A stretch of 64,000 nt of DNA from Thermodesulfobacteriota bacterium (GTDB taxonomy: Bacteria > Desulfobacterota > Desulfarculia > JACQYL01): the NCBI GenBank assembly GCA_963675595.2, contig CAXXLZ010000001.1, forward strand, positions 896,001-960,000, read 5' to 3'. Positions 18,387 through 42,995 of this stretch are shown piece by piece. Under the pieces are notes generated by a model. That model was given only the letters and a program-made list of their open reading frames with translations. It did no database searches and was not told where the DNA came from. The stretch's first letter is position 1. Every line of letters begins with the position of its first letter. The position numbers were made by a program, and so were the translations under genes.

Positions 18387-20342
18387 ATGGAAACACGTAT
18401 TGCGACATCGTGTACCCGCGATTGCCCTTGTGGCTGCAGTCTGCTCGTCACCGTCCAAGACGGTGAGGTTGTGTCTCAACGGGCCGATTCCAGAAACTCC
18501 TATACTCGAAATTTCCTGTGCGAAAAAGGAAACCGCTATCTAAAGCGGGTTTACAGCCCGGAAAGACTCACGTCTCCCTTGAAGCGAGTGGGGGAGACTT
18601 TCGAAACCGTGTCATGGGACGAGGCGTTGGACATTGTGGCGGACAAGTTGACGGGCACTCGCCGGGAAAGCGGCCCTTTGTCCACTCTCTGGGCTCAGTA
18701 TTCCGGCTCCCTTTCCCTGCTCAATCTTTTTATGCCCAGGTTCTTCTGGATACATTTAGGCGGAAGTACGGTCACGACCGGTGGAATTTCCATCGACGCA
18801 CTTCAGGCGGCACAGGAGCTGGATTTTGGTGCTTGTCTGCTTCACGCTCCCGAAGACCTGATGAACTCCCGGAACATAGTGATCTGGGGAAAGAACCCCG
18901 CCGTTTCCAATATTCACTTGATGCCGTTCATCAAGGAAGCCCGGCGAAACGGGGCCCGGCTCACGGTCATTGATCCTCGCAGTTCCGAAACGGCCCGAAT
19001 GGCGGATCACCATATCGCACCCCGACCCGGAGGGGACGGGTACTTGGCCATTGCAGCGGCCAAGGAGATCCGTCGCCGACAAGGTAACATACCGGATTGG
19101 GTCGAAAAAGGGGCGAATTGGGAAGGATACCTCGACCTTCTCGACCGTTACAATGAGGATGATCTTTTAGAGCAAGCCGGCGTCGGTCGAGAGGAGGTCT
19201 CACTCCTGGCCGACGCTTATTGGGATGATCGTCCGTGTTCCACATATATGGGGTTGGGGTTGAATTGGTGGAAGCAGGGGGGAGCCCATTGCCGCTTGGT
19301 GCATTCCTTAATATATATGAGTGGGAACGTGGGGGTCGCCGGAGGTGGGGCGAACTTTTTCAATCGCGACTTTCCTTTCAGTACACAACCGTTCCGAGAA
19401 GAAATGGCCAAGGCGAAGGAGCGAGGAGTAAATTTGGTGAAGCCTCGGCGGCTTGTCCTTCCTCTCCTGGCTCAGGAAATCGAGAAGGCGGAGGATCCGC
19501 CGATAAGGGTCGCGTGGATTTCCATGTTCAACCCGGTGGCCACGGTACCTGATTCCAACCATCTGGCGAATGTGCTGCGTTCCCTGGAATTCGTGGTAGT
19601 CACCGAGCAATTCATGACCGCCACTGCGGCGTGCGCCGATATCGTTTTACCGGTCACCACTTATCTGGAAGAAGAGGACGTGATTGGAAGCCATGGGCAC
19701 TCGTTTGTCGGACCGGTAAATGCGGCCATTGCTCCGCGAGGCCAAGCTCTCAGCAACTTTCGTATCTTCCAGCTGCTTGCCGAGAAGCTGGGATTCGGAG
19801 ATGCCTTGGCGGGATCTGAATGGGATTGGATTGCCCGGGCGTGGAGTCCTCTGTCCGAGCAAGGCATCACGTTGGACCAGGTGAGACAAGGGCCCGTGAA
19901 GCGTCCATTACCGTCGGTTCCGTTCAGTGACGGTGCCTTTTCAACAACCGACGGCAAATTTCAATTCATCACGGAATATGAGGGCCGTCCTCAAGACGAG
20001 CCGGGATTGTCACTCCTCATGGTGAAGGTATCCTCGTTCCTCAATTCACAACTACTGGACGATGAGGCACGTCCCGTACCCACGGTTCTTCTGAATCCGG
20101 TGGTTATGAAAAGCCTGGATCTGAGGGATGGGGATCGGGTGTGGATTCGGTCTCCCCTGGACCGAGTTGAAGCCGAAGTCGTGTCTTCCGAAAGAACCCG
20201 CGCCGACGTAGCCGAACTGTCACCTTCCATTTGGGCGGATGGCGGGAGGGGCGTCAACCGGTTGCGAGCGGCCCAGGTCAGTGACTTGGGACCCACGGCG
20301 GCCGTAAACGAGACGCGAGTCACCATTCACAAAGTGCCGTGA
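18387..20342 (+). CDS. Molybdopterin-dependent oxidoreductase (DMSO reductase family, cytoplasmic)
   Basis: CTRDCPCGC...LCEKG [4Fe-4S] motif, WGKNP, VIDPR, TATAACADIVLP, C-terminal MPT-binding domain; no Tat signal. Confidence 0.88.
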   Translation: METRIATSCTRDCPCGCSLLVTVQDGEVVSQRADSRNSYTRNFLCEKGNRYLKRVYSPERLTSPLKRVGETFETVSWDEALDIVADKLTGTRRESGPLSTLWAQYSGSLSLLNLFMPRFFWIHLGGSTVTTGGISIDALQAAQELDFGACLLHAPEDLMNSRNIVIWGKNPAVSNIHLMPFIKEARRNGARLTVIDPRSSETARMADHHIAPRPGGDGYLAIAAAKEIRRRQGNIPDWVEKGANWEGYLDLLDRYNEDDLLEQAGVGREEVSLLADAYWDDRPCSTYMGLGLNWWKQGGAHCRLVHSLIYMSGNVGVAGGGANFFNRDFPFSTQPFREEMAKAKERGVNLVKPRRLVLPLLAQEIEKAEDPPIRVAWISMFNPVATVPDSNHLANVLRSLEFVVVTEQFMTATAACADIVLPVTTYLEEEDVIGSHGHSFVGPVNAAIAPRGQALSNFRIFQLLAEKLGFGDALAGSEWDWIARAWSPLSEQGITLDQVRQGPVKRPLPSVPFSDGAFSTTDGKFQFITEYEGRPQDEPGLSLLMVKVSSFLNSQLLDDEARPVPTVLLNPVVMKSLDLRDGDRVWIRSPLDRVEAEVVSSERTRADVAELSPSIWADGGRGVNRLRAAQVSDLGPTAAVNETRVTIHKVP

Positions 20343-20580: not shown

Positions 20581-21300
20581 CTACTCGCCGTTATCGTTCT
20601 CCGTGTGGCCGTCTTCCGCAATGTCGGGTTCCAGAGGCCATTCACCGGGCATCGTGGTGCATTCACGATGCCCCGACTCCGTTTGGGGTCTCCAAACCGT
20701 GCGAAGATCAGGGCTTCTGATACCCACTAGAATCTGATCGGCGAACTGGTCTATGTAATCCCTGAGATCCTGCGCCCTCCCCACAAGGAGCTTGCTGACC
20801 ACCAAATGCTCCACCGTTCCCAAGATCATGGCGCGAACCAGGTAGGGATTGGTTTCCGGTCTGAATTCTCCCGACGATATCCCTTCTTCCACGACGCGCA
20901 GAATTACTCGGGATCTTTCCCGCACAGCCTGATAAGCTATAGTATCCAGGAATTTCCGGTTCTGCTTGAGAATCAACATGACCACTGCGGCGTATTCCAG
21001 GTGGTTCTGGTATAGCCAGAGATAGTGGTAGATAATGCTTCTTATCTTGTTGGATGCTCCGCGAACGTGATCCAGAATGAACGCGAGCATTTCCATGGAG
21101 CGTCGTTCCGTCTCTCCGGGAATGGAGAACAGCAGTTCCTCCTTGGAGGAAAAATACTCGTAAATCGTTGCTTCGGATATGCCGGCTTTTTGTGCTACTT
21201 CCGAAATGGTCGCTTCGTGGAACCCTTTTTCTGAGAAAACCTTCTGGGCGGCCTCTCGGATACTCTGCTTGCGAGCCTCAAACCTATCCTTCTTCTGCAC
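20581..21300 (-). CDS. TetR/AcrR family regulator (copy 2)
   Basis: Same HTH as copy 1; near-identical protein. Confidence 0.9.
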   Translation of the reverse strand: MQKKDRFEARKQSIREAAQKVFSEKGFHEATISEVAQKAGISEATIYEYFSSKEELLFSIPGETERRSMEMLAFILDHVRGASNKIRSIIYHYLWLYQNHLEYAAVVMLILKQNRKFLDTIAYQAVRERSRVILRVVEEGISSGEFRPETNPYLVRAMILGTVEHLVVSKLLVGRAQDLRDYIDQFADQILVGIRSPDLRTVWRPQTESGHRECTTMPGEWPLEPDIAEDGHTENDNGE

Positions 21301-22780: not shown

Positions 22781-22996
22781 GTGATGAGCGAAGTTTTTGC
22801 CCCGATGGCCGGGAAGATCATCAAGATCATGGTGAACGTGGGTGACGGCGTGGAAGAAGACGATGAGGTATTGATCATGGAAGCCATGAAAATGGAAATG
22901 CCCGTTGTCAGTCCCGAAAGTGGGACGGTGAAGGAAATCAAGGTGAAAGAAGGCCAGGCGGTGGAGGCCGAAGAAGTGGTGATGGTTGTCGAGTAG
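22781..22996 (+). CDS. Biotin carboxyl carrier protein
   Basis: APMAG and EAMKME biotinylation motif; AGGAGG RBS. Confidence 0.9.
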   Translation: MMSEVFAPMAGKIIKIMVNVGDGVEEDDEVLIMEAMKMEMPVVSPESGTVKEIKVKEGQAVEAEEVVMVVE

Positions 22997-23254
22997 AAAC
23001 ACGACAGCTTTCCATTTTCTTGACGTTAACCTTCGGGGTGCGCATGCTGCGTCATCGAAATCCGGTGATCGGCGAAGTGCGGACTGAAGGCGGTCGTACT
23101 GGACGGGTCGGCGATTGATCGGACAAGCCGGGATTCGCCTGGGAAACGTAAGTAATAGGCGAGCGGGGCTTGCTTATATGTCCGGGATTGATGTACAGGG
23201 AATTCCGTATCAATCTCATTTGTGACCGTAACCTGATATTTGGAGAAGCCGAAC

Positions 23255-23398
23255 ATGGTTGACTGGGATCAAGCCGTCAAGATCGTGGTGAACGGGTTCC
23301 TGGCCGTATTCGTGATTATGGGAATACTGGCCGGATTGACAACGATTGTAGGAAAAGTTCTTTCTCGCACTCAGAAATCCGACAAGGAAAGGGCGTAG
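23255..23398 (+). CDS. OadG-like small membrane subunit of a Na+-translocating decarboxylase (47 aa, not in ORF track)
   Basis: MVDWDQAVKIVVNGFLAVFVIMGILAGLTTIVGKVLSRTQKSDKERA*. Single TM, GGAG RBS, stop 1 nt before the beta-subunit ATG. Confidence 0.75.
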   Translation: MVDWDQAVKIVVNGFLAVFVIMGILAGLTTIVGKVLSRTQKSDKERA

Positions 23399-23399
23399 T

Positions 23400-24536
23400 A
23401 TGTTTTTGGGCATCCAAATGGGTTTCGGCTTCATGTCCATCGGGCAACTGGTCATGATTCTGGTCGGATTGGGCTTCATGTACCTGGCCATCAAGAAGAA
23501 GTGGGAACCCTATGAATTGCTTCCCATCGGTGCCGGAATGTTGTTGGCGAATCTACCGCTTACCGGGTTGACCACCGCGCCCGCACCGGGGCTTGGGCCG
23601 GGAATGGCGGGGATTCTGGGCATCATTCTGAAATACGGTTTGTACACATGGACGATTCTGCCCCAATTCATCTTCTTCGGAATCGGGGCGCTGACCGACT
23701 TCGGACCGCTGATCGCCAATCCCCGGGCCTTCTTTCTCGGTGCGGCTGCGCAGTTGGGGATCTACACCTCGTTCGTGGGCGCGCTCCTTCTCGGGTTCAC
23801 CATTCCCGAGGCATGTTCCATCGGAATCATAGGAGGAGCGGACGGTCCCACCACCATCTACACGACCGGTCTCTTGGCACCCGACATCATGGGCATTACG
23901 GCGACCGCGGCCTACAGCTATATGGCCATGGTGGCGATCATCCAGCCTCCCATCATCAAGGCGCTGCTCAGTAAGAAAGAACGCCAGATCTACATGAAGC
24001 CGCAGCTCAGGCCGGTTTCCAAGACCGAGAAGATTTTGTTCCCTCTGTTTACGATGATCATTGTGCTTCTGATGATCCCCAAGTCGGCTCCTCTCGTCGG
24101 CATGCTGATGCTGGGTAATCTGTTTCGGGAATCGGGCGTTGTGGAGCGGCTGTCCAACACGGCACAAAACGAGCTGATCAACATCATCACCATCTTGCTC
24201 ATGTTGGGCATCGGAGCGTCCATGCCTGCGGAATCCGTTCTTCAGGTCAAGACCCTGATGGTGCTGGGGCTGGGCCTGTTCGCCTTTTGCGTGGGCACCG
24301 CCGGAGGCGTTTTGCTGGGAAAGGTCATGAGCAAGTTCAGCAAAGAGCCCTTCAACCCCATGCTCGGCGCCAGCGGGGTGTCGGCCGTGCCCATGAGCGC
24401 CCGCATTGTGCAACATTTGGGACAGCATGAGAACAAGAAGAACCTGCTGCTCATGCACGCCATGGGACCCAACGTCGCCGGAGTGATCGGTTCCGCGGTC
24501 GCCGGCGGGTACTTTCTGGGATTGTTCGTGAAATAA
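23400..24536 (+). CDS. Na+-translocating decarboxylase beta subunit (OadB/GcdB/MmdB family)
   Basis: GIIGGADGPT, AYSYMA, GVSAVPMSAR, HAMGPNVAGVIGS. Confidence 0.95.
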   Translation: MFLGIQMGFGFMSIGQLVMILVGLGFMYLAIKKKWEPYELLPIGAGMLLANLPLTGLTTAPAPGLGPGMAGILGIILKYGLYTWTILPQFIFFGIGALTDFGPLIANPRAFFLGAAAQLGIYTSFVGALLLGFTIPEACSIGIIGGADGPTTIYTTGLLAPDIMGITATAAYSYMAMVAIIQPPIIKALLSKKERQIYMKPQLRPVSKTEKILFPLFTMIIVLLMIPKSAPLVGMLMLGNLFRESGVVERLSNTAQNELINIITILLMLGIGASMPAESVLQVKTLMVLGLGLFAFCVGTAGGVLLGKVMSKFSKEPFNPMLGASGVSAVPMSARIVQHLGQHENKKNLLLMHAMGPNVAGVIGSAVAGGYFLGLFVK

Positions 24537-24617: not shown

Positions 24618-25286
24618 CTACATGAAATCCATATCCCCACTGAAGGTGCCGTTGACAAAGGGGTTGGTAATGCGTTCGTGACCGATGGTGGAGGTGGGAG
24701 AGGGACCGTAATTGTGTCCGGGAAAGATCTCGGTGTCATCCGGCAGGGTCATCAGGTGCCGCTGGATCGAATCGAACATTTCGCTCCAGGATGATTTGGG
24801 ACCGTCCGTTCTCCCCACGGATCCCACGAAAAGCGTGTCTCCGGTCAAACACATGCCGGCGGGCTCATAATACAGGCATATGCCGCCGGGCGTGTGACCC
24901 GGGGTATGAAGCACCCTCCATCCATAGGAGCCGATGGTCAGCATATCTCCGTGTTCCAGTCTGCGATCCGCGGGCGGTGATTTTCGGGCGCTGAACATCT
25001 GGAGCCAGAACTCCCCGATCTTCGTCAAATAATCGGCCTCCGCCTCATGAATGAGGATTTCCGCTCCGGTCTTTTCTTTCATCTCGGCATTGCCCATCAC
25101 ATGATCCACATGCCCATGCGTGTTCAATATCGTACGGATTGTCAGACGATTCGCTTCAGCCAGTTCTATGATACGGTCCGCATCGTCTGCGGGGTCCACG
25201 ACCATGGCGTCGCCCGTATCGGTGTCGCCGATCAGGTAAGCGAACACCGCGTGATATCCAACTTCCAACTGACGAAAAAACATCAT
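24618..25286 (-). CDS. MBL-fold metallohydrolase (glyoxalase II-like)
   Basis: THGHVDH, HTPGHTPG, TGDTLF, PGH. Confidence 0.9.
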   Translation of the reverse strand: MMFFRQLEVGYHAVFAYLIGDTDTGDAMVVDPADDADRIIELAEANRLTIRTILNTHGHVDHVMGNAEMKEKTGAEILIHEAEADYLTKIGEFWLQMFSARKSPPADRRLEHGDMLTIGSYGWRVLHTPGHTPGGICLYYEPAGMCLTGDTLFVGSVGRTDGPKSSWSEMFDSIQRHLMTLPDDTEIFPGHNYGPSPTSTIGHERITNPFVNGTFSGDMDFM

Positions 25287-26179
25287 TAGTTCCGCCTCGA
25301 TTTTCTTAGGTAACCAAGAATCCCGGCCACGCTCAGGCCGAAAGAAAAGCGTTGTGTCGGAAAAGATTTAAGATGCGGCAGGCGTTCCAGGAAGGCCTCC
25401 AGCATTTCTTCGTTGGTTCCATCAGGGAACTGATCCAGCAAATCAGCCAAGGTCCCTACCCAGAGATCGTGTTGGCGCTTGAGGCGTGGAAAGAAATCGT
25501 CATCCCGTGCCAAATAATAGGGGCCGTTGTGGGTGAAAAACAATGACTTGAGATGGAGATCGGCTACCTTGTCCAGAGAAAGTTTGGATTTCGGAAGATC
25601 GTAGTCCGGAGGAGGGGCCAGGACGAAATTGGGCAGACCGAGGTACTTGCTGCCCAACGCATCTCCCACGAATCCGATTCCTTCCTCTGGGCAATAATAG
25701 ACTACATGGTGTCCGGCATGGCCCGGCGTTGCCAATACATGCAGTCGGCGATGGCCAATATCTATGACATCACCGGAATCCACCGCCACGATCGTATTGT
25801 CTTCCGAATCTATGGGGAGCAGTTCCCCTATCTGATGGAAACGGCTTCCGTAGGCTCTCCTGACGCTTTGGTTGAGTCGTTCCGGTCGAGCGAGATGATG
25901 GGCGCCTTCGCCGTGGACATATACGCGCATAGCAGGGTTGTCTCGCACCAGATAGCCCGCACCTCCGGCGTGGTCCAGGTGAATGTGGGTCAGAGCTGTA
26001 ACGTGGATGTCCGCGGGTGTCAGGCCCATCTTTCGCAAGGCCGCCACCAGTTCCGGGTACTCGAAGGGAAAACCGCATTCAACGAGAGTGGGGTGATCAT
26101 CAAGGATCACATAGCACGCGCGAACGCGATTGAGGAGAATCATAAACAGATTCGGGGCCACTTCTTCAATATGGAACAT
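25286..26179 (-). CDS. MBL-fold metallohydrolase (start uncertain)
   Basis: THIHLDHAGG, TPGHAGHH, GDALG. Confidence 0.85.
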   Translation of the reverse strand: MFHIEEVAPNLFMILLNRVRACYVILDDHPTLVECGFPFEYPELVAALRKMGLTPADIHVTALTHIHLDHAGGAGYLVRDNPAMRVYVHGEGAHHLARPERLNQSVRRAYGSRFHQIGELLPIDSEDNTIVAVDSGDVIDIGHRRLHVLATPGHAGHHVVYYCPEEGIGFVGDALGSKYLGLPNFVLAPPPDYDLPKSKLSLDKVADLHLKSLFFTHNGPYYLARDDDFFPRLKRQHDLWVGTLADLLDQFPDGTNEEMLEAFLERLPHLKSFPTQRFSFGLSVAGILGYLRKSRRN

Positions 26180-26391
26180 AACGGCCTTGGCTGGAATCCG
26201 GTCTTGATCGACGGTTATGGCTTTGGCGGCGAAGCTGTGCAAGGAACGATGGACAAACTTAGGTAAGGTCGGCCTTGAACTCGCACACCGGAGAGTGGCG
26301 TAGGAAAAAGGTAAGAACATCGGACCGACCCGTGAGGGCGGAGGTCCGATGTTCGATGAGAGCCCCGATATCGACGTGGTGAGTTCTAATG

Positions 26392-27186
26392 CTATCCTTT
26401 GGAACCGAGCCTGAGGCCTCCATGGAGGAAATAAACCGCTCCGTTGATGGCTTCGTTTCGGTACATTTCAAAAATGAGGGAAGCCACCTCCTCCGGTTCG
26501 ATCAAGCGCCCGATGGGCACATTTTCCAGGATCTTGTCGAGGGCTTTCTGATTCATGCCCTTTACCATGGCGGTGCCCACATACCCGGGAGCGATTGCAC
26601 CGCAGCGGATTCGATCGGCGATGCCTTTTCTGAAAAACTCGGCCACGATAACACTGGGCATGACACTCATGGCCGCTTTGGTTGCGGAATAGTTGATTTG
26701 GCCGGCCGTACCCAGGGAGCCCGTCGAAGAGATAGTGCAGAGGAAGCCGCGGGAGCCGTTGTTGATCATCTGTTCCGCGCACTCTCTCAAGGTGAGGAAG
26801 ACGCCCGTGATATTGATGTCAAGCACGCGCTGGAACTGATCGACACTCATCTTTTTGGTGACTTTGCCCGTTTCCCTGTCGGGGGAGAGAAAAAGTCCGT
26901 CCATGATGATACCCGCACACGGAACGACCAGATTGATGTCGCCGAAGGTATCCACGGCTTTTTTAGCAAGCGCGGAGGCGTCTTCTTCTTTGGTGACGTC
27001 GCAAACGATGGAAGTCGCTTGGCCGCCCATGTCCTTGATTTCCTTCTCCACGCGTTCCAGGTTCTCTTTTACCACGTCTCCCAGAACAACCTTACCACCC
27101 AGTTTGACCCATTCCTTGGCCACCATCTCACCAATACCGCTGCCTCCGCCGGTGATTACCGCTACATGATCCTTGATCTCAAGCAT
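26392..27186 (-). CDS. SDR oxidoreductase, probable 3-hydroxyacyl-CoA dehydrogenase
   Basis: TGGGSGIG, GQINYSATK (YxxxK), IAPG; co-oriented with the mutase genes. Confidence 0.88.
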   Translation of the reverse strand: MLEIKDHVAVITGGGSGIGEMVAKEWVKLGGKVVLGDVVKENLERVEKEIKDMGGQATSIVCDVTKEEDASALAKKAVDTFGDINLVVPCAGIIMDGLFLSPDRETGKVTKKMSVDQFQRVLDINITGVFLTLRECAEQMINNGSRGFLCTISSTGSLGTAGQINYSATKAAMSVMPSVIVAEFFRKGIADRIRCGAIAPGYVGTAMVKGMNQKALDKILENVPIGRLIEPEEVASLIFEMYRNEAINGAVYFLHGGLRLGSKG

Positions 27187-27272
27187 TGTGAATCCCCTTT
27201 TCTGGTGCGAACATTTATGGGTAGCGAATTCATGGAATCAGATCGTCCGAGGCCGGCCGCCAATGTTTCGCC

Positions 27273-28250
27273 TCACGACTGAGAGAGATCCAATTGACGC
27301 TCCACTTGAACGGCGATCTCTCTGGCTGCGGACTCCGGGTCCTTCTTACGCGCCCATATTTGTTCCACGAGCTGGTCCAGGTTGTTGTTCCGACTCATAT
27401 GCTCCCAGGTAATCCGTGTGAGTTCCTTTTCGATAAGTCTCAGCAACTCGGCCCGTATTTGTGTTTTTCTTCGCTTCTTCAGGCGGTCTTCTTTCAGCAG
27501 GAATTCACGATGGGAAAGGATTCCCCGGTAGAGCTCTTCGATTCCCCAGTTGCGCATGGCCGCGGTCATGAAAACCGACGGTGTCCACTCGGACTTTCGG
27601 AAAGTCGTGCGCCGTTCGAGCATGTTGGCAATAGATTCAGCCATGGAATCGGCACCGGATCGGTCCGACTTGTTCACGGCAAAAACATCGGCGATCTCCA
27701 TCAAACCGGCTTTCATGATTTGAACGCTATCGCCGCTTTCAGGGACCAGCACTACAAGAACGGTGTCCGTAGCACTCACGATATCCAGTTCGGACTGGCC
27801 CACCCCCACGGTCTCAATGATGATGATCTGCTTTCCGCAGGCGTCCAGGATGCGGGTGGCTTCACGGGTGGTTTCGGCCAACCCCCCTACGGTCTTGCCG
27901 GCACTCATGCTCCGGAAGAAGATATCCCAGCCCGGTTTCTTTTTGACGTTCATACGAATACGATCGCCGAGGAGCGCACCTCCGCTGAAAGGACTGGAGG
28001 GGTCGATGGCGACGATCCCCACAGAGAAGCCCTCAGCGCAAAAGGTCCTTGTCAGACGGTCGACGAGGGTGCTTTTCCCCGCTCCCGGCGGACCGGTAAT
28101 TCCCACGTAATAGGCATTGCCCACGTGGGGATAAATATGCTTCATCACCTCGTGGGCGGTGGGATCGCGACGCTCCACCAGGGAGATGAGTCTGGCGATG
28201 GCCAGCGTCTCCCCGGCGAGCGCTTTACTCAGCAGCTCTTGTAATTCCAT
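27273..28250 (-). CDS. meaB: MeaB/ArgK mutase-associated GTPase
   Basis: GPPGAGKST, DPSSPFSGGALLGDRIRM, ETVGVGQSE, NKSD. Confidence 0.95.
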   Translation of the reverse strand: MELQELLSKALAGETLAIARLISLVERRDPTAHEVMKHIYPHVGNAYYVGITGPPGAGKSTLVDRLTRTFCAEGFSVGIVAIDPSSPFSGGALLGDRIRMNVKKKPGWDIFFRSMSAGKTVGGLAETTREATRILDACGKQIIIIETVGVGQSELDIVSATDTVLVVLVPESGDSVQIMKAGLMEIADVFAVNKSDRSGADSMAESIANMLERRTTFRKSEWTPSVFMTAAMRNWGIEELYRGILSHREFLLKEDRLKKRRKTQIRAELLRLIEKELTRITWEHMSRNNNLDQLVEQIWARKKDPESAAREIAVQVERQLDLSQS

Positions 28251-28265
28251 AAGTCCCTAAGGCGT

Positions 28266-28658
28266 TCAGACGGACACCGAGCCATTGACTACATCGATGA
28301 TGGTCTGCATGGGTGTGTCCGGAAGAAACACTCGATTGACACCGCCCTCGAGAAGCGCGGGTACGTGCTTGGGAGGAATGACGCCGCCCATGAATACCTT
28401 GACGTTGTCGAGTCCGCCTTCTTTGAGGAGTCTTACGGTCTTCAAGCCCAATGAATGGTGGTTTCCCCCCAACGTGCTCATGCCCACAACGTCCGCGTCT
28501 TCCTGCATCACCGCTTCAACGATCTGTTCAGGAAACTTGTTTCCGATATATACGACATCCATGCCGGCGTCTCTCAGAAACTGACTTACCAAGTAGACGC
28601 CTCTCCAATGAATGTCCAATCCCAGTTTCGCCATGACAACTTTGATCGGTCTGGTCAT
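28266..28658 (-). CDS. Acyl-CoA mutase small (cobalamin-binding) subunit
   Basis: KLGLDIHWRG (DxHxxG), VVGMS, GGVIP. Confidence 0.92.
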   Translation of the reverse strand: MTRPIKVVMAKLGLDIHWRGVYLVSQFLRDAGMDVVYIGNKFPEQIVEAVMQEDADVVGMSTLGGNHHSLGLKTVRLLKEGGLDNVKVFMGGVIPPKHVPALLEGGVNRVFLPDTPMQTIIDVVNGSVSV

Positions 28659-28705
28659 TACTTAACCTCCATACGCTCGGCTCTTAGCACTGTTTCGGTT
28701 TTCGA

Positions 28706-30424
28706 CTAGTTGATCAGCGGGAACGTCCACAGACCGAATTGCTCTCGGAAGAGTTCCTCGATTTCGCCAAGCGTCACCAGATTCTTGACTGCTTCAAGCG
28801 TATACGGGTAGAGGTTTTCATCCGTGTGGCACTTATCGGCCAGTATTTTCAGCGATTCCTTGACCTTTTGTTCGCTGCGCTCTTTGCGGAGACGATCAAG
28901 TTTGGCTTTTTGGCGGGTGTAGGTTTCCGGATACTCGAAGACCTCGATTTCACGGGCGGAACCTTCTTCCGCTCTGAAATAGTTCACGCCGACCACCTTC
29001 ATTTCGCCGTTTTCGATCTTCTTCTGGTACTTCAGGTTGTAGTTGGCGATTTCGCGATGCAGCCAACCGTTCTCCACTGCGGTTACCAAGCCGCCCATGT
29101 CTTCGATTTTCTTAATATAATCGAAGATTCGCTTGACCATCTCGTCGGTGAGGTACTCAAGATAATAGGACCCGGCCAACGGATCCACGGTATTGATGAC
29201 CCCGGTTTCCGCCTGGATGATCTGCTGGGTGCGGAGCGAAATCAACGCCGCTTCCTCGGTGGGCGCGGAGTAAGCTTCGTCATAGGAGTCGATGTGCAGG
29301 GATTGGCAGCCGCCAAAGGTGGCCGCGAGTCCCTGAAGAGCGGACCTCGCCACATTGTTCAGAGGCTCGGTGGCCGGCAGGGTAACGCCCGCGGTTTGCA
29401 CGTGGAAGCGCATCAGCATGGACTTGGGCTTCTTGGCGCCGAAGCGTTCCTTCATGATCTTGTACCAAACCTTACGGCTGGCCCGGCACTTGGCGATCTC
29501 TTCGAAGAAGTCATTGTGGAGGTCCCAGAAAAAGCTCATTCTGGGAGCGAAATCGTCGACGTTCATACCGCGTTTAAGCAATTCCTCGGCCGTGGCGATG
29601 CCGTTGGAGATGGCGATGGCCACTTCCTGGACCGCATTGGTGCCGGCTTCCCGCAGGTTGTACCCGTTATAGCTGATGGGGTTGAAACGGGCGTAGTTCT
29701 GGCAGACGAACTGGACGACGTCGCACTGCAGCCGGAAGCTCACCGGGGGAGGAAGAATTTCCGGACCACTGCCCACGCAGGTTTCCATAATGAAGTCGTT
29801 CTGGCAGGTTCCCGCGATCTTGTCCTTGGGGGTCCCTCGCTGTTCGGCGACCGCGAAATACATGCCCGGGATCACAATGGAGGTGCTGGGCAGATGGGTC
29901 ACGATCGAAGTACTGATGGTTCCCAGGTCGATGTCCTTGAAATAGGCATCCATGTCCCAGATGGAATCCACGGCGGCGCCGCAGTGCCCCACATTGCCTT
30001 CCGCCTCGGCATCGTCGGAGTTATATCCGCGGATCGTGGGAAGGTCGAAGAGGATGTTGACGCCGTTGGCTCCATGCTGCAGCAGGTACTTGATGCGCAG
30101 GTTGCAGTCTTCCGGAGCGCCCAGGCCGGCGAGCTGGCGAACGGTGAACGGACGGCCGCGGTACATATTGGGGTAGACGCCGCGGACGTAGGGGGCGCAG
30201 CCCGGGTAACCGATGTCTTCCGTATAGTCGATGTGGGACACATCCGCAGGAGTGTGCACCATCTTGACGGGAATGCCGGAGTGTGTGAAGTACTTGCCGG
30301 CAAGCTCTTCCTCACGATCTCCGTCCTTCAGGACGTTGTTGAACCAATCGTCATAACCCGTCTTGATGCTGTCCAACTGCTCCTTGGTGAAAATACAAAC
30401 TTGCTTCTCAGGGTTGTTTGCCAT
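28706..30424 (-). CDS. AdoCbl-dependent acyl-CoA mutase large subunit (not MCM-type; possibly 2-hydroxyisobutyryl-CoA mutase-like)
   Basis: RGVYPNMY, RQLAG, FDLPT, QND, REAG, DPLAGSYY; the specificity residues differ from MCM. Confidence 0.9.
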   Translation of the reverse strand: MANNPEKQVCIFTKEQLDSIKTGYDDWFNNVLKDGDREEELAGKYFTHSGIPVKMVHTPADVSHIDYTEDIGYPGCAPYVRGVYPNMYRGRPFTVRQLAGLGAPEDCNLRIKYLLQHGANGVNILFDLPTIRGYNSDDAEAEGNVGHCGAAVDSIWDMDAYFKDIDLGTISTSIVTHLPSTSIVIPGMYFAVAEQRGTPKDKIAGTCQNDFIMETCVGSGPEILPPPVSFRLQCDVVQFVCQNYARFNPISYNGYNLREAGTNAVQEVAIAISNGIATAEELLKRGMNVDDFAPRMSFFWDLHNDFFEEIAKCRASRKVWYKIMKERFGAKKPKSMLMRFHVQTAGVTLPATEPLNNVARSALQGLAATFGGCQSLHIDSYDEAYSAPTEEAALISLRTQQIIQAETGVINTVDPLAGSYYLEYLTDEMVKRIFDYIKKIEDMGGLVTAVENGWLHREIANYNLKYQKKIENGEMKVVGVNYFRAEEGSAREIEVFEYPETYTRQKAKLDRLRKERSEQKVKESLKILADKCHTDENLYPYTLEAVKNLVTLGEIEELFREQFGLWTFPLIN

Positions 30425-30700
30425 GTTCCTGCCTCCTTTACAGAAATCTTACTGCTTTTATTTCCAGGGCTACTGTCCGTTAATAATTCGCTTGAAAATC
30501 GCCGAGTTTCCTCCAGACCGCCACGTCACGGAGGACCCTACGGTTTCAAGCATGTAAGGAGTGCGGTTAAGGGATTGATTTCATGGAGCGAACCCCTACG
30601 GAGGACGATCCGACGCTTCTGCCAATTGCCTTTTGGTTCCCCCTCGTTAACGATGACGCCCGAAGGGTTCTTGCTCACACTACATTCGGTTTCGGTTGGA

Positions 30701-31903
30701 CTAGAACTCTTCCGAGCTCAATTCGAGTTCAAAAGGATCCACCGCCAACGGTACGCCGGTACCTCCTTGAACAATCACTCTCTTGAGTCCGACGGACTCT
30801 ACGATGATTCTTGCCTGATCTATGTCTTCCGCTGTGACGAAAGGCCAGTCCCGCAATCGGAAGGCCGGTTGGTATTCAATAAGGGTAACCGGCATCTCCG
30901 GGTTGATCGCCGCGACGGCACGGGCGGAAGCAAGAAGCTCCTCTTGCGTGTGTACGCGGGGATGGTATGGAAGGCTGACCGCCATAAACACTCGTCCGCG
31001 GTACTTTTCGTCGACGTAAGCTACTGCATTCCAAGAGGTTTCCAAATAAGAACGGGCCAATGGCTCAGATGTAATGCCGCACAAAAGCATGAACGTTCTT
31101 ACGGTTCGGGCCTTCAAATCGGGCGAGAGGTCGGTCACGCCGGCATCGACCAGTTCATCGATGTAGTCGGGCGTTAGAATGGAAGCATTGGTGTCCAATT
31201 GTATCCGGACCTCCGGATGGACCTCTCTGATTCTACGCACTGTCTTGACCAGCCACGGGCGATTCAGTGTAGGTTCCCCACCGGAAATTCCCACCCAGTA
31301 ATCCCGTGAAACGTCCAGACGAAGGGCGTCCACCGCCTCTACCGGGGTACAGGTTCGGCCGGCGGAGGCGAAAGTCATCTCCCAGTTGTGGCACAGATCA
31401 CAAGAATAGTTGCATCCGTGCGTGAATATGGACGGATGGTGATGGGGAGCCGGCCGCATCGTTGTTACCACGCGAAGAGGATCGGCGTCTCGGACTTCGA
31501 CGGAGTCGGTGGAAATCGCCATCCCATCTGTGAGGGGGGTGAGGCAACTTCGCTTCAGCTCACCGTCGATCCAAACTGCGCAGTTCCAACAGCCGCCGGT
31601 GTCACAAGTCGCGTGCGAGGTTTGATCGGCGTGACCTCCGACCGATTTGCCCAGACTGCGGAGCACCTGCCGGACCGTTATGGGACCCTGAATGATGAGG
31701 TTTTCACCGTCCAAGGAGAAGCGAAGCGCCGCTCCGGAATTCCTGCGAGGTTCAAGACTTCTGGCGTTCTGAGGACAACCCTTGATGCATATCCCGCATC
31801 CGATGCACGCGGAGGCGACGGCCGGACACCCCACATAGTGGCTGCAGAATCCGCATTGCACGCAATTATCGTTGACAATGACGGAGAACCGTTCGGAGCT
31901 CAT
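30701..31903 (-). CDS. Radical SAM protein (PflA-like) with N-terminal ferredoxin-type Cys clusters
   Basis: GCNYSCDLCHN, ISGGEP, LDTN; N-terminal CVQCGFC, CIGCGICIKGCP and CDTGGCWNC. Confidence 0.85.
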   Translation of the reverse strand: MSSERFSVIVNDNCVQCGFCSHYVGCPAVASACIGCGICIKGCPQNARSLEPRRNSGAALRFSLDGENLIIQGPITVRQVLRSLGKSVGGHADQTSHATCDTGGCWNCAVWIDGELKRSCLTPLTDGMAISTDSVEVRDADPLRVVTTMRPAPHHHPSIFTHGCNYSCDLCHNWEMTFASAGRTCTPVEAVDALRLDVSRDYWVGISGGEPTLNRPWLVKTVRRIREVHPEVRIQLDTNASILTPDYIDELVDAGVTDLSPDLKARTVRTFMLLCGITSEPLARSYLETSWNAVAYVDEKYRGRVFMAVSLPYHPRVHTQEELLASARAVAAINPEMPVTLIEYQPAFRLRDWPFVTAEDIDQARIIVESVGLKRVIVQGGTGVPLAVDPFELELSSEEF

Positions 31904-32280
31904 TCCCAGATCAACTTCGTATCACCGACCTTGGCACAGAATTCGAACGGAAAGGAACCCCAGAACTCGTTTTCAGCCTCGATGGTAACTTTGTCGAGAC
32001 GGTCCACTCCCATTTTGGTCAGAAACTGTTCCTTGGAAGGGAGGTTGACCACCAACTCGTCGATTCTTGGCAGGGCGATGAAATCGTAGGGATGCTCATT
32101 GTCCAGGTTGGCCCAAACTACGTCTCCCTTGCTGACGATGGTGCTGTCTTCCAGAGCGACGAAGATTTCCTCAGGAAAATCTTCTCGCCGGTAAAACTGC
32201 CTCACGATTAGCATCACCATGGCTTTCTCAACGGTGATCTCTTCGGGTCTTGTTTCGGTGAAATTTCCAAAAAAAGTCAA
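31900..32280 (-). CDS. Hypothetical acidic protein, translationally coupled to the radical SAM gene
   Basis: AGGAG RBS before a TTG start; ATGA overlap with the downstream gene. Confidence 0.7.
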   Translation of the reverse strand: MTFFGNFTETRPEEITVEKAMVMLIVRQFYRREDFPEEIFVALEDSTIVSKGDVVWANLDNEHPYDFIALPRIDELVVNLPSKEQFLTKMGVDRLDKVTIEAENEFWGSFPFEFCAKVGDTKLIWE

Positions 32281-32414
32281 AAGCGATTCTCCTACCGTCG
32301 GGTCGGAATAAAAGAGGAAGTCTTCATCTCAGCTTCGCGAAAATGGAGGCGGAAATGGCTCCCGTTTTTCTCAAAGCATCTGAAATAAAGACTCCCTTGG
32401 AGTGTAGGCGGTTT

Positions 32415-32438
32415 AGGGATTCACCGAAGTGAATCCCC
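32415..32438 (-). terminator. Stable UUCG-capped hairpin after the TDP enzyme gene
   Basis: Minus strand ggggattcac-ttcg-gtgaatccct; no U-tract, so it may be an mRNA-stabilising stem rather than a terminator. Confidence 0.45.
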
Positions 32439-32446
32439 ATTGCCGG

Positions 32447-34498
32447 TTATTTGAACAGATCGGATTTGGGTTCGTAACCGAATTCTTCTTCGGTCAGCGC
32501 TTCCCAGCTGTCGTAAATGGGCATCGGCGGCAGCTTATCCAATTCGGGGAACCAGCGCTTCAGGGTGGAGCGTCTGGAGTGCTTGCCTCTCAAGGGCAGC
32601 TCGTTCCAGGGCAGATGCGCGTACATGAGGGAGTAGACCGGTCCGATAACCGCTTTGTTGACCAAGTGCTGGTCCATGATGCAGTTCATGATGACCGGGC
32701 CGCTCTTTTCCGCGATTCCGTAGGCGGTCTTCAGGTCTTCTTTGAACTTTTCGGAACGGTTGCACACCATGCCGGTGCCGCCGAACACGTCGCAGAGTTT
32801 GTCGAAGCGGGTGTCGAGCGGACGTTCCTCACCCATCATGGTGACGCCCATCCAGTCGTTGCCGAAGACATCCTGGTCGCCCAGCATATCCCAGTTGGGA
32901 CCGTACCAGGGGTACTTCATACCGGGCATCCAACCGCAGTTGTTGGTGACCAGGTAGACGATGGGGAGTTTGTACATAACGGCCACATGGATATCCAGTG
33001 CGCCGTTCATCATACCGGAGTCGCCCATGAGCGCCAGGAACGGAATCTTGGAACCGTTTTCCAGGTCGCCGATGGCCGCACCGATGGCTTGGCCGACGCC
33101 GTGACCCACACCGGCCTGGTCGTTGGCCGTGATGCAGGAACCGGGCCTGGTGAACTGCAGGTACGGCATAACAAAGTCACTCATGGTGTAACCATCAATG
33201 GCCACACGGACCGCACTGCCGTAAAGTTCCTCGTTCACTTCCCGGATGATCTGGGACATGTAACCGAAGTGCAGGATATCTTTGGATTTGTATCTCGGAT
33301 GATCCGGACCGTACTTGTAGGCCTTGGCCGTACGAGCGGAAGTCGCGTCGGCATTGGACTTCTTGCAGCGTGCCGCCCACTCTTCGCGTTCGGGGCTGAG
33401 CTTGTCGTAGCCGTTCTTCTTGATGCACTCGTTGAGCTGCTTCATGACGACTTTGGTGTTTCCGACAAGAGCGGCCTTGGTGTTCACGTAGGTCCAGACG
33501 TACTCGTTGCAGGGAGCGATCTGGATGGACTGCGGCCAACCGCCCGCATAGCCGTCAAAAAAGCCGACCTTGAGGCCGATGGGAATCATCAGGTCGAACT
33601 CGTTGCGGAATTTGGGGAAGCCGCGGTGGGCCATTTCGTGCTTTTCCGTGACCGCCGCGCGACCGATACGCCGAGTGTTGAAAGGAATCTTCGTCAGATT
33701 GACGAATTCCTCGATTTCCGGACCGGCCTGATCCCAAGTGGCATAGTCGCCCAGAATGATGAAGGGCTTCTTGCACTCGAAAATGGCCTTGGCCGCTTTC
33801 TCGATAGAGGCCGGGTCCGCGCCCATGGTGATGGGGGTCGTGGTTTCTTCCTGACGCCAATTGGGCACGTAGTCGGCATGCTGGGGAAAGAATCCGCCCC
33901 AGTAATGCTCGCGGGCCTCGTCCTTCATGAACAGACAGTCGATGCCCAGCTCGAAGGCCACCGGACCCATGGGGGCGGTGGTGGCGACGCGGAAGCCACG
34001 AGTCATGAACTGCTTGACGGACCAGGGATAGAAGCAGCGCTGGGCCCACTTGGTAATGTGGGTGAAGAACTCGGCGCAGATACTTTCCTGGATCGTGTTG
34101 TAGAGGTGGTCGTGTTCCTGCTCGATACCACCCGCCAGATAGATGATGGGGGAGTTGCTGAGAAAAGCCTGCTGCAAGGGGCTGAAAGCGTTGCCCGTGC
34201 CGGGGCCGACCGTACCAAAGGCCACCGCGGGTTTCTGGGTGACCTGAGTATAGGCTTCCGCAGCATAAACCGCGGTTTGCTCATGGCCGAAGATCACCAG
34301 TTTGATGCCGATACGGGAAATAGCATCCACGAAATGCCAAATGTGACCGCCGGGAACACCCCAGGCAACCGTTACGCCCTGCTCCCGAAGGATTTCGGCC
34401 ACGTACTTACCCACGGACGGGTAGAGCTCACGTTTTCCTAAAGGAACATCTAATTTTTTCTGCGCTTCTTCGTCGAATTCGATTCCAAGCTTCGGCAT
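32447..34498 (-). CDS. Thiamine diphosphate-dependent enzyme (acetolactate synthase / 2-hydroxyacyl-CoA lyase superfamily), 683 aa
   Basis: GVPGGHI, HEQTA (catalytic Glu), GPGTGN, GDSG...NN TDP motif; long C-terminal extension. Confidence 0.9.
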   Translation of the reverse strand: MPKLGIEFDEEAQKKLDVPLGKRELYPSVGKYVAEILREQGVTVAWGVPGGHIWHFVDAISRIGIKLVIFGHEQTAVYAAEAYTQVTQKPAVAFGTVGPGTGNAFSPLQQAFLSNSPIIYLAGGIEQEHDHLYNTIQESICAEFFTHITKWAQRCFYPWSVKQFMTRGFRVATTAPMGPVAFELGIDCLFMKDEAREHYWGGFFPQHADYVPNWRQEETTTPITMGADPASIEKAAKAIFECKKPFIILGDYATWDQAGPEIEEFVNLTKIPFNTRRIGRAAVTEKHEMAHRGFPKFRNEFDLMIPIGLKVGFFDGYAGGWPQSIQIAPCNEYVWTYVNTKAALVGNTKVVMKQLNECIKKNGYDKLSPEREEWAARCKKSNADATSARTAKAYKYGPDHPRYKSKDILHFGYMSQIIREVNEELYGSAVRVAIDGYTMSDFVMPYLQFTRPGSCITANDQAGVGHGVGQAIGAAIGDLENGSKIPFLALMGDSGMMNGALDIHVAVMYKLPIVYLVTNNCGWMPGMKYPWYGPNWDMLGDQDVFGNDWMGVTMMGEERPLDTRFDKLCDVFGGTGMVCNRSEKFKEDLKTAYGIAEKSGPVIMNCIMDQHLVNKAVIGPVYSLMYAHLPWNELPLRGKHSRRSTLKRWFPELDKLPPMPIYDSWEALTEEEFGYEPKSDLFK

Positions 34499-38209: not shown

Positions 38210-39049
38210 CTAGGTTCGGTCGGCGACCTTTCTGGGACCGGGTCCCGAATAGGTCATCTCGCCGGCGATGGTTTCGGGGGGCATGGGCGCTTTCAACCGT
38301 TCTTTTCTCATAAGGGTTTCGTAGCCGTGCGCCATAAGTCCCAAGCCTCGGGACAGGCATACGAATCCCATGGCGGTTTCGGCGGGAATCCCGCATTCGC
38401 ACAGAATGGCGCCGCCGCCTCCATCCACATTCATTGGAATCGCTTCCTTGGCATAGACCGAAGGCAGCACCCTTTCAAAGGTTCTCGCCCACTGCACGAA
38501 TCGACCCGAGATGATTCCTTCCTCACGCGCCTCTTCCGCCAACTGGAACAACCGGACGACCCTGGGGTCTTCATCGTGTACGGGATGGCCGAATCCCGGC
38601 ACAAAGCCTTTCGCGGCCCGATATTCGTGACAAATTTCTCGGACGATGTCTTCCGGCTCTCGGCCGGTTTCCCGGCCGACTTGGTCGGCGCGGTAGAAAA
38701 GTCGGGTGGCCGCCTCGATGGGACCTCCATGAATCTCTCCGAGCAGATTGATTCCGGATGCGATGACACAGTTCAAAGGGATACCGCAGGTCGCGGCCAT
38801 GATGGAGGTGGCCACCGCGGGCGAATTGGCTCCGTGATCGCAGACGGCGACCAGCAGGGCTTCCAACAGAGTGCTGATCTTTCCGTGGGGAGCCAGTTCC
38901 CCCATGATCATGAGATACGCCATTTCTCCATAGGAGACTCGTCCCATCAAATCTTCGATGGCATAACCTTTAATAAGAAGCTCGTTTTTTCGCACTCGAA
39001 CGATGGACGTATCCCACCATCCCCGTTCCCCACCGGCGTCGTGAGGCAT
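38210..39049 (-). CDS. Citryl-CoA lyase / citrate synthase-like protein
   Basis: DHG, IHGG, PGFGHPVH..DPR, NVDG. Confidence 0.85.
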   Translation of the reverse strand: MPHDAGGERGWWDTSIVRVRKNELLIKGYAIEDLMGRVSYGEMAYLMIMGELAPHGKISTLLEALLVAVCDHGANSPAVATSIMAATCGIPLNCVIASGINLLGEIHGGPIEAATRLFYRADQVGRETGREPEDIVREICHEYRAAKGFVPGFGHPVHDEDPRVVRLFQLAEEAREEGIISGRFVQWARTFERVLPSVYAKEAIPMNVDGGGGAILCECGIPAETAMGFVCLSRGLGLMAHGYETLMRKERLKAPMPPETIAGEMTYSGPGPRKVADRT

Positions 39050-39062
39050 CCGTGAATTCCTT

Positions 39063-39827
39063 TCAACCATCGAATTTCGCTTCTCGTTTCTCGACAAAAG
39101 CACGCGTTCCTTCCCGCATCTCACCTTTCGTCATGGTTTCGATCATGGGTCGGGCCGGCTCTTCGACGTTTCGAACGTAGGGGTCTCGGTCGCATTCCGT
39201 GAGAATCTTCTTGGACAGTCTCATGGCGAACGCGGCGTTGTGAGCGAGTTCTCTGCCCAGGGCATCCGCTCGTTCCCACAACTCTGCTTCCGGGTAAACC
39301 TTTTCCACGAGACCGAACTCGCGAGCCTCAAGCGCACCGACGCGTTCACCCGTGAGGACCAGGTACTTCGCCCGGGCGAGTCCCACGCTTCTCACCAACC
39401 GATCCAAATAGAGGTAGCTCTCCGCAACCCCGAGTTTCGAGGAAGGGATGCCCAGCGAAGCCTCCTCGGAAGCAATGCGGAAATCTGCGCAAAGAGCCAA
39501 CTCCAACCCCGTGCCCAAAGCATAGCCGTGAATCACGGCGACCAGCGGGCAGGGCAGGTCCTCCAACTTGGCGAACACCCGTTCCCGAAGGTCGTGAAAA
39601 CGTTTCAGTCCCGCCTCGTCGAAGGAACTCAGGTCGCGGATGTCCGCTCCCGCACAGAAACAGCCTCCTTCACCCTTCAGAATGACTGCTTTGGCCGAGT
39701 CCCGGCATCGATCGACGGCGGTCTCCAGTTCCCCGAGCAACTCACCGTTGACTGCGTTCTTTTTTTCGGGACGATTCAAAGACAGGAAAACGACGTTTGA
39801 ATCTTCTTGAAACAGCACCAAACTCAT
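39063..39827 (-). CDS. Enoyl-CoA hydratase/isomerase
   Basis: LNRPEKKNA, FCAGADI, GTGLELALCAD. Confidence 0.9.
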   Translation of the reverse strand: MSLVLFQEDSNVVFLSLNRPEKKNAVNGELLGELETAVDRCRDSAKAVILKGEGGCFCAGADIRDLSSFDEAGLKRFHDLRERVFAKLEDLPCPLVAVIHGYALGTGLELALCADFRIASEEASLGIPSSKLGVAESYLYLDRLVRSVGLARAKYLVLTGERVGALEAREFGLVEKVYPEAELWERADALGRELAHNAAFAMRLSKKILTECDRDPYVRNVEEPARPMIETMTKGEMREGTRAFVEKREAKFDG

Positions 39828-39857
39828 GGCGACTCCCCCCAATACGAGCCCTAATTC

Positions 39858-42485: not shown

Positions 42486-42995
42486 TTGAAATCCTCGATC
42501 ATCGGTTGAGCTGGAGCGGGCACGACTTCCACGGGCTTTCCCATGTACAAGGGATCGGGGAGAATCCCCGCCTCCTTGACATTGCACGACATTTACCATA
42601 GTAGATGAGACGCATCCGGCAGAAGGACGAAAGCCGGTTCGCTCGAGCCGAGTGCTTGATATTGCGAAAGCTGATATTGAACGGCCGGAGATTTCGTTTC
42701 AGGCGATTCTCCATGATCCGGCGATACTCGCGGATGGAATCAGCGCGCTATGTCGTCTTGTATGGGCGGGCGAGTTGTGAATCTACGGAGAAACGCGACT
42801 CGATGTCAAGGATGAACAGCGCTGGGCGACAGGGCTTTTTGAGGGTCGCGCGACGACCGACCCGATGACTTCGACGCCGTGCGGATGATCCACATCCGTC
42901 TTGTTCCGTAATCTAGAAGGATGAGTTAGTTCTTCGGAAGTCTCTTACGACGTTCAATCCAGTGGCGGAGCGCTTACAAAACGAGGGAGAACAAT

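Follow-up and report, generated by a model that had tools for sequence, protein, structure and literature searches.

How do anaerobic bacteria activate acetone without a carboxylase, and which proteins does the first step of that route require? These questions are raised by a gene cluster in a 64,000-nucleotide stretch of DNA from a Thermodesulfobacteriota bacterium (positions 896,001 to 960,000 of contig CAXXLZ010000001.1; hereafter the window, to which coordinates refer unless another locus or contig is named), in which nine co-oriented minus-strand open reading frames (ORFs) at positions 24618-34498 begin with a 683-residue thiamine diphosphate (ThDP) enzyme and include a B12-dependent acyl-CoA mutase. 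Activation of acetone by anaerobes that do without a carboxylase is a reaction still to be solved: no C1 donor has been demonstrated for it, and no activity of the ThDP enzyme (PMC7888143). An acetone-inducible cluster is known from Desulfococcus biacutus and Desulfosarcina cetonica (Gutierrez Acosta, 2014; Frey, 2018, 2021), and the pathway has been extended to two Desulfotomaculum species (Frey, Kassner and Schink, 2021; PMC8084838). The cluster in the window is probably the host's copy of this short-chain ketone pathway, and comparison across genomes singles out a 126-residue orphan protein (hyp126) and a ferredoxin-fused radical S-adenosylmethionine (SAM) enzyme as the sole strictly conserved neighbours of the ThDP gene.

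The genes induced in D. cetonica by acetone, butanone and isopropanol encode a ThDP enzyme annotated as 'acetolactate synthase', both mutase subunits, a MeaB-like protein, a '3-oxoacyl-ACP reductase', an acyl-CoA synthetase, a thiolase, an HMG-CoA-lyase-like protein and decarboxylase subunits (PMC7888143). The mutase step has been demonstrated experimentally with the enzymes of D. biacutus and D. cetonica, and the dehydrogenase step with an orthologous dehydrogenase; the same paper reports that formyl-CoA or oxalyl-CoA fed to cell extracts gave no product and that formyl-CoA was undetected in cells (PMC7888143). Rohwerder et al. (2020), who assumed formyl-CoA, regarded the D. biacutus ThDP enzyme as a 2-hydroxyacyl-CoA lyase (HACL) candidate, 22% identical to the actinobacterial lyase, and termed the D. 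biacutus mutase RcmAB-like (PMC7176365). The pathway put forward in an earlier, sequence-only reading of the window, in which a ThDP enzyme condenses acetone with a formyl unit and a B12 mutase and a short-chain dehydrogenase/reductase (SDR) process the product, is this already published model (PMC7888143; PMC8084838; PMC7176365).

A cluster orthologous to the acetone-induced genes of Desulfosarcina cetonica

The nine ORFs, identified from the ORF list with domains assigned through Pfam and NCBIfam, agree in every item with the run of genes described in the sequence-only reading. In order of transcription on the minus strand, they encode the ThDP enzyme (32447-34498; TPP_enzyme_N, M and C domains), hyp126 (31900-32280; no Pfam or NCBIfam family), a 400-residue radical SAM enzyme (30701-31903; Fer4, Fer2_4 and Radical_SAM domains), the large subunit of a B12-dependent acyl-CoA mutase of the 2-hydroxyisobutyryl-CoA mutase type (28706-30424; MM_CoA_mutase, 575 bits), the mutase small subunit with its B12-binding domain (28266-28658), MeaB, the G-protein chaperone of the mutase (27273-28250; 317 bits on TIGR00750, above the cut-off of 241), and an SDR (26392-27186; assigned through Pfam and NCBIfam) orthologous to the acetone-induced 3-hydroxybutyryl-CoA dehydrogenase. 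The run closes with two metallo-beta-lactamase (MBL) fold hydrolases carrying Lactamase_B domains, one of 344 residues (25286-26320) and one of 222 residues that resembles glyoxalase II (24618-25286; best solved relative 2xf4, 130 bits) and may be a candidate 2-hydroxyacyl-thioester hydrolase.

A scan of one genome per species yielded 20 loci related to the window, one of which (L003) belongs to D. cetonica JCM 12296, and the window proteins were compared with the entire 33-kb D. cetonica contig. The ThDP enzyme is 83% identical over all 683 residues to its D. cetonica counterpart (Ga0122881_105227 family; DebiaDRAFT_04566 in D. biacutus), followed by the mutase large (76%) and small (67%) subunits, SDR (72%), the 222-residue MBL hydrolase (68%), MeaB (53%), the radical SAM enzyme (50%) and hyp126 (49%); the gene for the 344-residue MBL protein comes after that for the SDR in four of the loci (L001, L007, L011 and L015). 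The correspondence continues beyond the nine ORFs, with matches to acetone-induced D. cetonica genes found for an AMP-forming acyl-CoA synthetase (12384-13955, minus strand; 75%), an HMGL-like lyase (14009-15100, minus strand; 53%) and a thiolase (15620-16900, minus strand; 78%), and further matches for OAD beta (50%) and a DUF2889 protein (49%). At the level of sequence, the wider window mirrors the published acetone-induced island of D. cetonica. The proposal that this organism uses the same ketone route as D. biacutus and D. cetonica is supported by orthology to the experimentally studied D. cetonica cluster (50-83% identities), and the gene linkage is conserved elsewhere among the 20 related loci.

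In common with the D. biacutus and D. cetonica cluster, the window holds a ThDP enzyme of about 685 residues, a split B12 mutase, MeaB and an SDR, together with the acyl-CoA synthetase, thiolase, HMGL-like lyase and OAD beta, and both D. cetonica and the present host are sulfate reducers (dsrA is present in the host genome at 585.6 bits, above its cut-off). The arrangement in the window is more compact: the ThDP enzyme, hyp126 and radical SAM genes (the triad) share a strand with the mutase operon and lie immediately upstream of it, whereas the D. cetonica mutase lies about 10 kb from the ThDP enzyme on the opposite strand. The ThDP gene, adjacent to those for the B12 mutase, MeaB and SDR in the window, is linked to them within 10 kb in 7 of the 20 loci and at just beyond this distance in D. 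cetonica.

In the pathway as proposed here, the 683-residue ThDP enzyme, a candidate ketone-activating 2-hydroxyisobutyryl-CoA synthase, would join acetone (or butanone) and an activated C1 unit to form 2-hydroxyisobutyryl-CoA, a step for which hyp126 and the ferredoxin-fused radical SAM enzyme would be needed as accessories. The split B12 mutase, kept loaded by MeaB, would then turn 2-hydroxyisobutyryl-CoA into 3-hydroxybutyryl-CoA, as shown for the orthologues of D. biacutus and D. cetonica, the SDR would oxidise 3-hydroxybutyryl-CoA, giving acetoacetyl-CoA, as shown for its orthologue, and the island thiolase would cleave acetoacetyl-CoA.

Two constant neighbours of the ThDP gene

Three of the 20 loci (L006, L010 and L017) end within or at the ThDP gene, leaving 17 usable for comparison, and in all 17, which represent Thermodesulfobacteriota and Bacillota, homologues of the radical SAM enzyme and hyp126 are encoded no more than about 2.2 kb downstream of the ThDP gene. 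The order ThDP, hyp126, radical SAM is found in 16 loci; the radical SAM gene of L002 is cut by a run of N, and in L019 one opposite-strand gene stands between members of the triad. The order ThDP, radical SAM, then a 110-residue relative of hyp126 (21% identity) occurs in L020 (Peptococcaceae), and the triad of D. arcticum is arranged in the same way (PMC8084838). In that study, both partners were detected in D. arcticum only in ketone-grown cells, and Frey et al. (2021) already suggested the two proteins as subunits or activators. All-against-all clustering of the ORFs from the 20 loci and the window, counted as sources per gene, gave 18 sources for the ThDP enzyme and 17 each for the radical SAM enzyme and hyp126, followed by 8 each for the mutase large subunit, small subunit and SDR, 7 each for MeaB, the acyl-CoA synthetase, the HMGL-like lyase and a B12-binding radical SAM methyltransferase (described below), and 6 for the thiolase.

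The hyp126 gene begins with TTG, preceded by a GGAG-type ribosome-binding site, and its stop codon overlaps the start of the radical SAM gene by ATGA; both genes are single-copy in the host genome. That hyp126 is a real conserved gene follows from an alignment of 18 sequences with a mean column identity of 53%. A search of 1.84 billion representatives with a hyp126 profile recovered 21 clusters (E ≤ 0.001), every one of them of 54-170 residues and without fusions, and among 401 sampled genomes of the phylum the profile found only the host's own, a result that shows rarity rather than co-occurrence. The radical SAM family occurs in the same taxa as the ThDP family, and at least 10 radical SAM matches agree with ThDP matches in the length of the longest contig, which suggests that they lie on the same contigs. 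The predicted structure of hyp126 (pLDDT 85.0) gave no match at E ≤ 0.001 in a Foldseek search against the PDB, a best Z of 3.0 in VIA-align over 48,161 chains, and no usable match in the ESM Atlas.

The radical SAM enzyme carries an elaborate set of cysteine residues in front of its catalytic core. Invariant Cys 14, 17, 20, 26, 33, 36, 39 and 43 at the N-terminus correspond to two ferredoxin-type clusters, and the likewise invariant Cys 100, 105, 108 and 120 form a 2Fe-2S-like module resembling those of NuoG, FdhA and HydA, while the core contains an invariant CX3CX2C motif (C164/C168/C171) and an invariant GGE motif (208-210). The predicted structure (pLDDT 85.2) matches NifB, lipoyl synthase and pyruvate formate-lyase (PFL) activase, and covers the PFL activating enzyme (PFL-AE) structure 3c8f almost fully (TM 0.75 over the target, 258 columns). 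PFL-AE, with which it shares the CX3CX2C and GGE motifs and the compact core, is also its best radical SAM sequence match among solved structures; the NifB and LipA structures score similarly. The protein nevertheless differs from PflA in falling far below the cut-offs of the corresponding models (28.4 versus 231.75 for TIGR02493; 54 versus 131.15 for TIGR02495), in its N-terminal module of about 150 residues with 12 conserved cysteines, and in having a ThDP enzyme rather than a glycyl-radical enzyme as its neighbour.

On this comparison hyp126 and the radical SAM enzyme would most likely be a small subunit and an activase or maturase for the first step of the pathway. An obligatory three-protein unit, previously suggested in print, is favoured by the conservation of the triad in 17 of 17 loci across two phyla, and a need for accessory partners would explain the lack of activity both in extracts and in the enzyme alone. 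A literature search returned no later work resolving the ThDP step, and in the one text file of the PMC7888143 supplement that was covered the neighbouring locus tags and the word 'radical' are absent.

The ThDP enzyme and the mutase

The ThDP enzyme has the three-domain fold of the ThDP decarboxylase superfamily, as have AcHACL and the oxalyl-CoA decarboxylases and 2-hydroxyacyl-CoA synthases (OXC/HACS), and it ends in a long C-terminal extension, of about 75 residues past TPP_enzyme_C (domain end at residue 605). The extension is conserved in an alignment of 24 family sequences (A2, from which L012 was excluded on account of a shortened ORF), as are the invariant HEQ and GDSG...NN motifs. 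In contrast to AcHACL and OXC, an insertion of about 30 residues follows the ThDP motif; it is specific to this family and holds the invariant residues Q542, D543 and E558. In AcHACL, the acid/base glutamate, E493, is located on the helix after the ThDP motif, and the C-terminus forms a lid (PMC8760513). A radical SAM protein with an orphan partner is a feature of the window enzyme that is undescribed for HACL or OXC in the passages of the literature covered here.

The best solved relatives of the enzyme are all distant and comprise the oxalyl-CoA decarboxylase/HACS structure 8vzk (1.3e-30), benzaldehyde lyase (1.9e-29), 8vzd (4.7e-29) and acetolactate synthases. A separation from ordinary acetolactate synthases, on which the sequence-only reading had staked its assignment, is evident from a score of 143.8 bits against a cut-off of 538.35 for TIGR00118 (164 versus 587 for another acetolactate synthase model), compared with 810.2 bits on TIGR00118 for the genuine IlvB of the same genome. 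The host encodes six TPP_enzyme_N proteins, namely the window enzyme and five paralogues: IlvB, a 555-residue HACL/OXC-like protein (378.6 bits, short of the cut-off of the HACL model), and three proteins of 650-660 residues encoded on contig 2 (L030), contig 3 (L031) and contig 1 (L032). One of these long paralogues is 38% identical to the window enzyme, has the same C-terminal extension and is encoded beside an SCP-x thiolase and an acyl-CoA dehydrogenase, with neither hyp126 nor the radical SAM gene nearby in the host genome. A 111-residue ORF beside this paralogue was considered as a relative of hyp126 and rejected (hhalign probability 0.14%). Another long paralogue lies in a cluster with four subunits of the BCR/HGD type, a hydratase and an SDR.

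The tree agrees with this separation. It was calculated with IQ-TREE from 29 rows, i.e. the 24 of alignment A2 and the five host paralogues, which stand in for named references, with none dropped. The window enzyme and its D. cetonica counterpart fall within a 12-row clade (support 100/98) nested in a 21-row clade (100/100), to which neither IlvB nor any of the other four paralogues belongs; a branch of 0.58 sets the larger clade apart from the 38% paralogue and from three relatives of metagenomic origin. Long branches lead to IlvB and the remaining paralogues, whose exact placement is unsure.

The mutase resembles HcmAB (Aquincola) and RcmAB (Kyrpidia) in its split large and small subunits and in its association with a MeaB-type chaperone. 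Among solved structures the large subunit is closest to HcmA (4r3u_A, 458 bits), ahead of human methylmalonyl-CoA mutase (360 bits) and IcmF (198 bits). It differs from HcmA at two sites, reading RQLAGLG where HcmA has RQIAGFG, with Leu in place of Ile in HcmA and Tyr in human methylmalonyl-CoA mutase, and ILFDLPT at the TDFDMPT site, with Leu in place of Asp. The positions at these two sites are ones that we take to set substrate and stereospecificity.

Candidate C1 donors and lineage-restricted companions

The sequence-only reading had allowed that neighbouring genes may supply the formyl donor. No plausible universal gene for its supply was found near the ThDP enzyme in the window and the related loci, and within the window no gene presents itself as an obvious C1-donor candidate. 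Dependence on formyl-CoA is itself an assumption. A molybdopterin oxidoreductase (18387-20342) is weakly similar to formate dehydrogenase alpha subunits (206 bits versus a cut-off of 666) and is not conserved in the related loci. An Fmt-like formyltransferase, encoded directly after the radical SAM enzyme in L004 (13782-14702), L008 (6320-7240) and L009 (13786-14706), scores just under the cut-off of TIGR00460 (188.8 versus 201.5 bits) and has an orthologue (59.5%) in the host genome outside the window (contig 1, 1598089-1598997). Orthologues at 55% identity or more were found in only one of five other triad-bearing genomes (58%), the best D. cetonica match being 33%, and the protein was rejected as a universal formyl supplier on these grounds, the latter organism being a proven acetone degrader. 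As a lineage-restricted lead, it is a possible link to 10-formyl-tetrahydrofolate.

A second candidate companion, a 659-residue B12-binding radical SAM C-methyltransferase (40620-42599, minus strand; TIGR03975, 596.6 bits versus a cut-off of 281.85, full model covered), is encoded 6 kb upstream of the ThDP gene, a proximity that distinguishes the window from the D. cetonica cluster. Its homologues adjoin the triad in 7 of the 20 loci, at varying positions, and it was rejected as an essential part of the system because all five other triad genomes, D. cetonica included, lack a close orthologue (best matches 26-27%, or none). To judge from these distributions, the formyltransferase and the methyltransferase are lineage-restricted extras rather than a universal answer.

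The host orthologue of the Fmt-like gene is situated in a second locus (L034; contig 1, 1593000-1612000), which also encodes a 3-hydroxyacyl-CoA dehydrogenase, two HGD-D subunits (2-hydroxyacyl-CoA dehydratase/BCR-like), a corrinoid adenosyltransferase, an MBL/ODP protein, a PEP-mutase/ICL-family protein, the 555-residue HACL/OXC-like ThDP enzyme, an SCP-x-type thiolase, a 955-residue TPR/SEC-C protein and an MFS transporter. In other genomes, several such gene types flank the triad, among them that of the TPR/SEC-C protein in six other loci. BCR/HGD-like subunits have been reported in the literature as acetone-induced.

The wider island, regulation and expression

Further genes lie on both sides of the nine-gene run. 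On the minus strand, the wider island includes genes for subunits of a 2-oxoacid:ferredoxin oxidoreductase (8048-11090) and for an enoyl-CoA hydratase (11105-11935), which are similar to genes induced in D. arcticum (PMC8084838). On the plus strand, a 71-residue biotin carrier with an EAMKM motif (22781-22996), a 52-residue OAD-gamma-like membrane protein (23240-23398) and OAD beta (23400-24536) make up the membrane module of a Na+-decarboxylase; no carboxyltransferase gene was found in the window, and contig 2 of the host genome encodes a protein that matches the L013 carboxyltransferase at 52%. The interval that separates the B12 radical SAM gene from the ThDP region (38210-40430, minus strand) contains genes for a citryl-CoA-lyase-like protein (NF004864, 280 versus a cut-off of 261), an enoyl-CoA hydratase and the DUF2889 protein, the latter two recurring in four loci each, and at 42996-46652 (plus strand) an ADP-forming acyl-CoA ligase (best match 3-hydroxypropionate-CoA ligase, where its 915 bits fall short of the cut-off of 1300) precedes a YcaO protein with TPR repeats. 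Defence genes occupy the two ends of the window (82-4031 and 61243-63962, both minus strand) and include HsdM and HsdR of a type I restriction-modification system and a TOTE-system primase-like protein beside a Csm6-like HEPN protein. The acetone carboxylase gamma subunit (PF08882) was not found in the genome, in a search made without a positive control.

Unlike the D. cetonica cluster, the window has no two-component regulator, and two TetR genes (17177-17812 and 20581-21300) are present instead. L007, L011, L012 and L015 carry genes for a PAS histidine kinase and a LuxR-type response regulator alongside the cluster, and L003 and L016 that for the regulator only. A scan for sigma-54 promoter patterns gave two matches against 1.62 expected, none near the cluster, and sigma-70 and terminator scans gave no excess over shuffled controls. 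Directly after the ThDP stop codon, a hairpin with an 11-bp stem and no U-run (32395-32446, minus strand) stands out in folding (-26 kcal/mol for a 63-nucleotide stretch, z = -5.2); it was rejected as a conserved feature, a comparably strong fold being present in only 5 of 18 folded sequences, the window among them. One rhizosphere metatranscriptome run contains contigs free of mismatches to hyp126 (32018-32201), to parts of the ThDP gene, to the 5' leader of that gene as far as 34631 and to the spacer 30460-30635, and contigs from a wastewater RNA run are 90-99% alike to the ThDP, hyp126, mutase and SDR genes. These RNA-library contigs weakly hint at expression, DNA carry-over being possible and no growth condition being attached to them.

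Discussion

That the cluster serves ketone activation at all has to be set against several considerations that count against it. All curated cut-offs for 2-hydroxyacyl-CoA lyases and oxalyl-CoA decarboxylases are missed by the ThDP enzyme, which differs in this respect too from AcHACL and OXC (NF058623, 93.7 versus 600; NF006721, 124.8 versus 557; TIGR03254, 106 versus 739.4). Inspection by eye revealed no glycyl-radical-type motif (RVxG[FY]-like) in the ThDP enzyme or hyp126. Growth of the host on ketones is a prediction from its genes, and the identities given above refer to D. cetonica only, as D. biacutus is not among the 20 loci. Finally, in the parts of the source covered here, formation of 2-hydroxyisobutyryl-CoA from acetone has never been shown for any member of the ThDP family (PMC7888143).

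Two readings in which the cluster does not activate ketones can be weighed against this background. The names of the top NCBIfam matches, 'acetolactate synthase' and 'methylmalonyl-CoA mutase', might suggest a general module for acyl-CoA rearrangement or fatty acids (isobutyryl- or methylmalonyl-CoA) in which the ThDP protein is an acetolactate-synthase-like biosynthetic enzyme. Such a module is hardly credible in view of acetolactate synthase scores that lie far under their cut-offs, the true IlvB located elsewhere in the genome, a mutase that is nearer to HcmA than to methylmalonyl-CoA mutase, and genes orthologous to acetone-induced genes. The sequence-only reading had also allowed for the pathway in reverse, which would mean degradation of 2-hydroxyisobutyrate (2-HIBA) or other tertiary-branched compounds by a ThDP lyase that frees acetone and formyl-CoA, as in Actinomycetospora. 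In its favour, the lyase reaction of the actinobacterial HACL is reversible (PMC8760513) and the island includes an AMP-forming acyl-CoA synthetase; however, in four sulfate reducers acetone, butanone and isopropanol induce the orthologous genes, D. biacutus is without a 2-HIBA-CoA ligase according to the relevant passages of Rohwerder et al. (PMC7176365), and the mutase and the lyase represent alternative routes of 2-HIBA breakdown, not consecutive steps. The present analysis lends no support to the reverse direction, which we consider very improbable.

Within ketone activation, the question becomes whether the ThDP enzyme acts by itself. A plain HACL-type condensation of acetone with free formyl-CoA, in which hyp126 and the radical SAM enzyme are passengers or serve some other function, would agree with the presence of oxalyl-CoA decarboxylase and 2-hydroxyacyl-CoA synthases (8vzk and 8vzd) among the best solved relatives and with the formyl-CoA assumed by Rohwerder et al. 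(PMC7176365), and the C-terminal extension, basic and conserved, might serve as a CoA lid like that of AcHACL. We nevertheless judge it rather unlikely, as all 17 comparable loci, from two phyla, retain the triad even where the gene order has changed, hyp126 is not met with elsewhere (21 clusters, none of them a fusion), and formyl-CoA yielded no product in extracts and went undetected in cells (PMC7888143). Ketone activation by a three-part, radical-SAM-dependent ThDP system rather than by plain HACL-type condensation is put forward tentatively, as a possibility that falls short of being probable. The radical SAM enzyme, with its own three-cluster electron wire, would in that case equip the ThDP enzyme or hyp126 with a radical or a post-translational modification, or act jointly with them, and in some lineages the B12 radical SAM methyltransferase or the Fmt-like formyltransferase may assist.

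The window itself adds one further organism with the known cluster. What is new is the cross-genome comparison of the triad, which points to the ThDP enzyme, hyp126 and the radical SAM enzyme as the unit to be studied together, for a reaction that is also of interest for the design of C1-assimilation pathways based on 2-hydroxyacyl-CoA synthases. Should the radical-SAM-dependent system prove to be true, it would constitute a new class of radical-activated ThDP enzyme and would provide the reason why this reaction has resisted reconstitution for over a decade.

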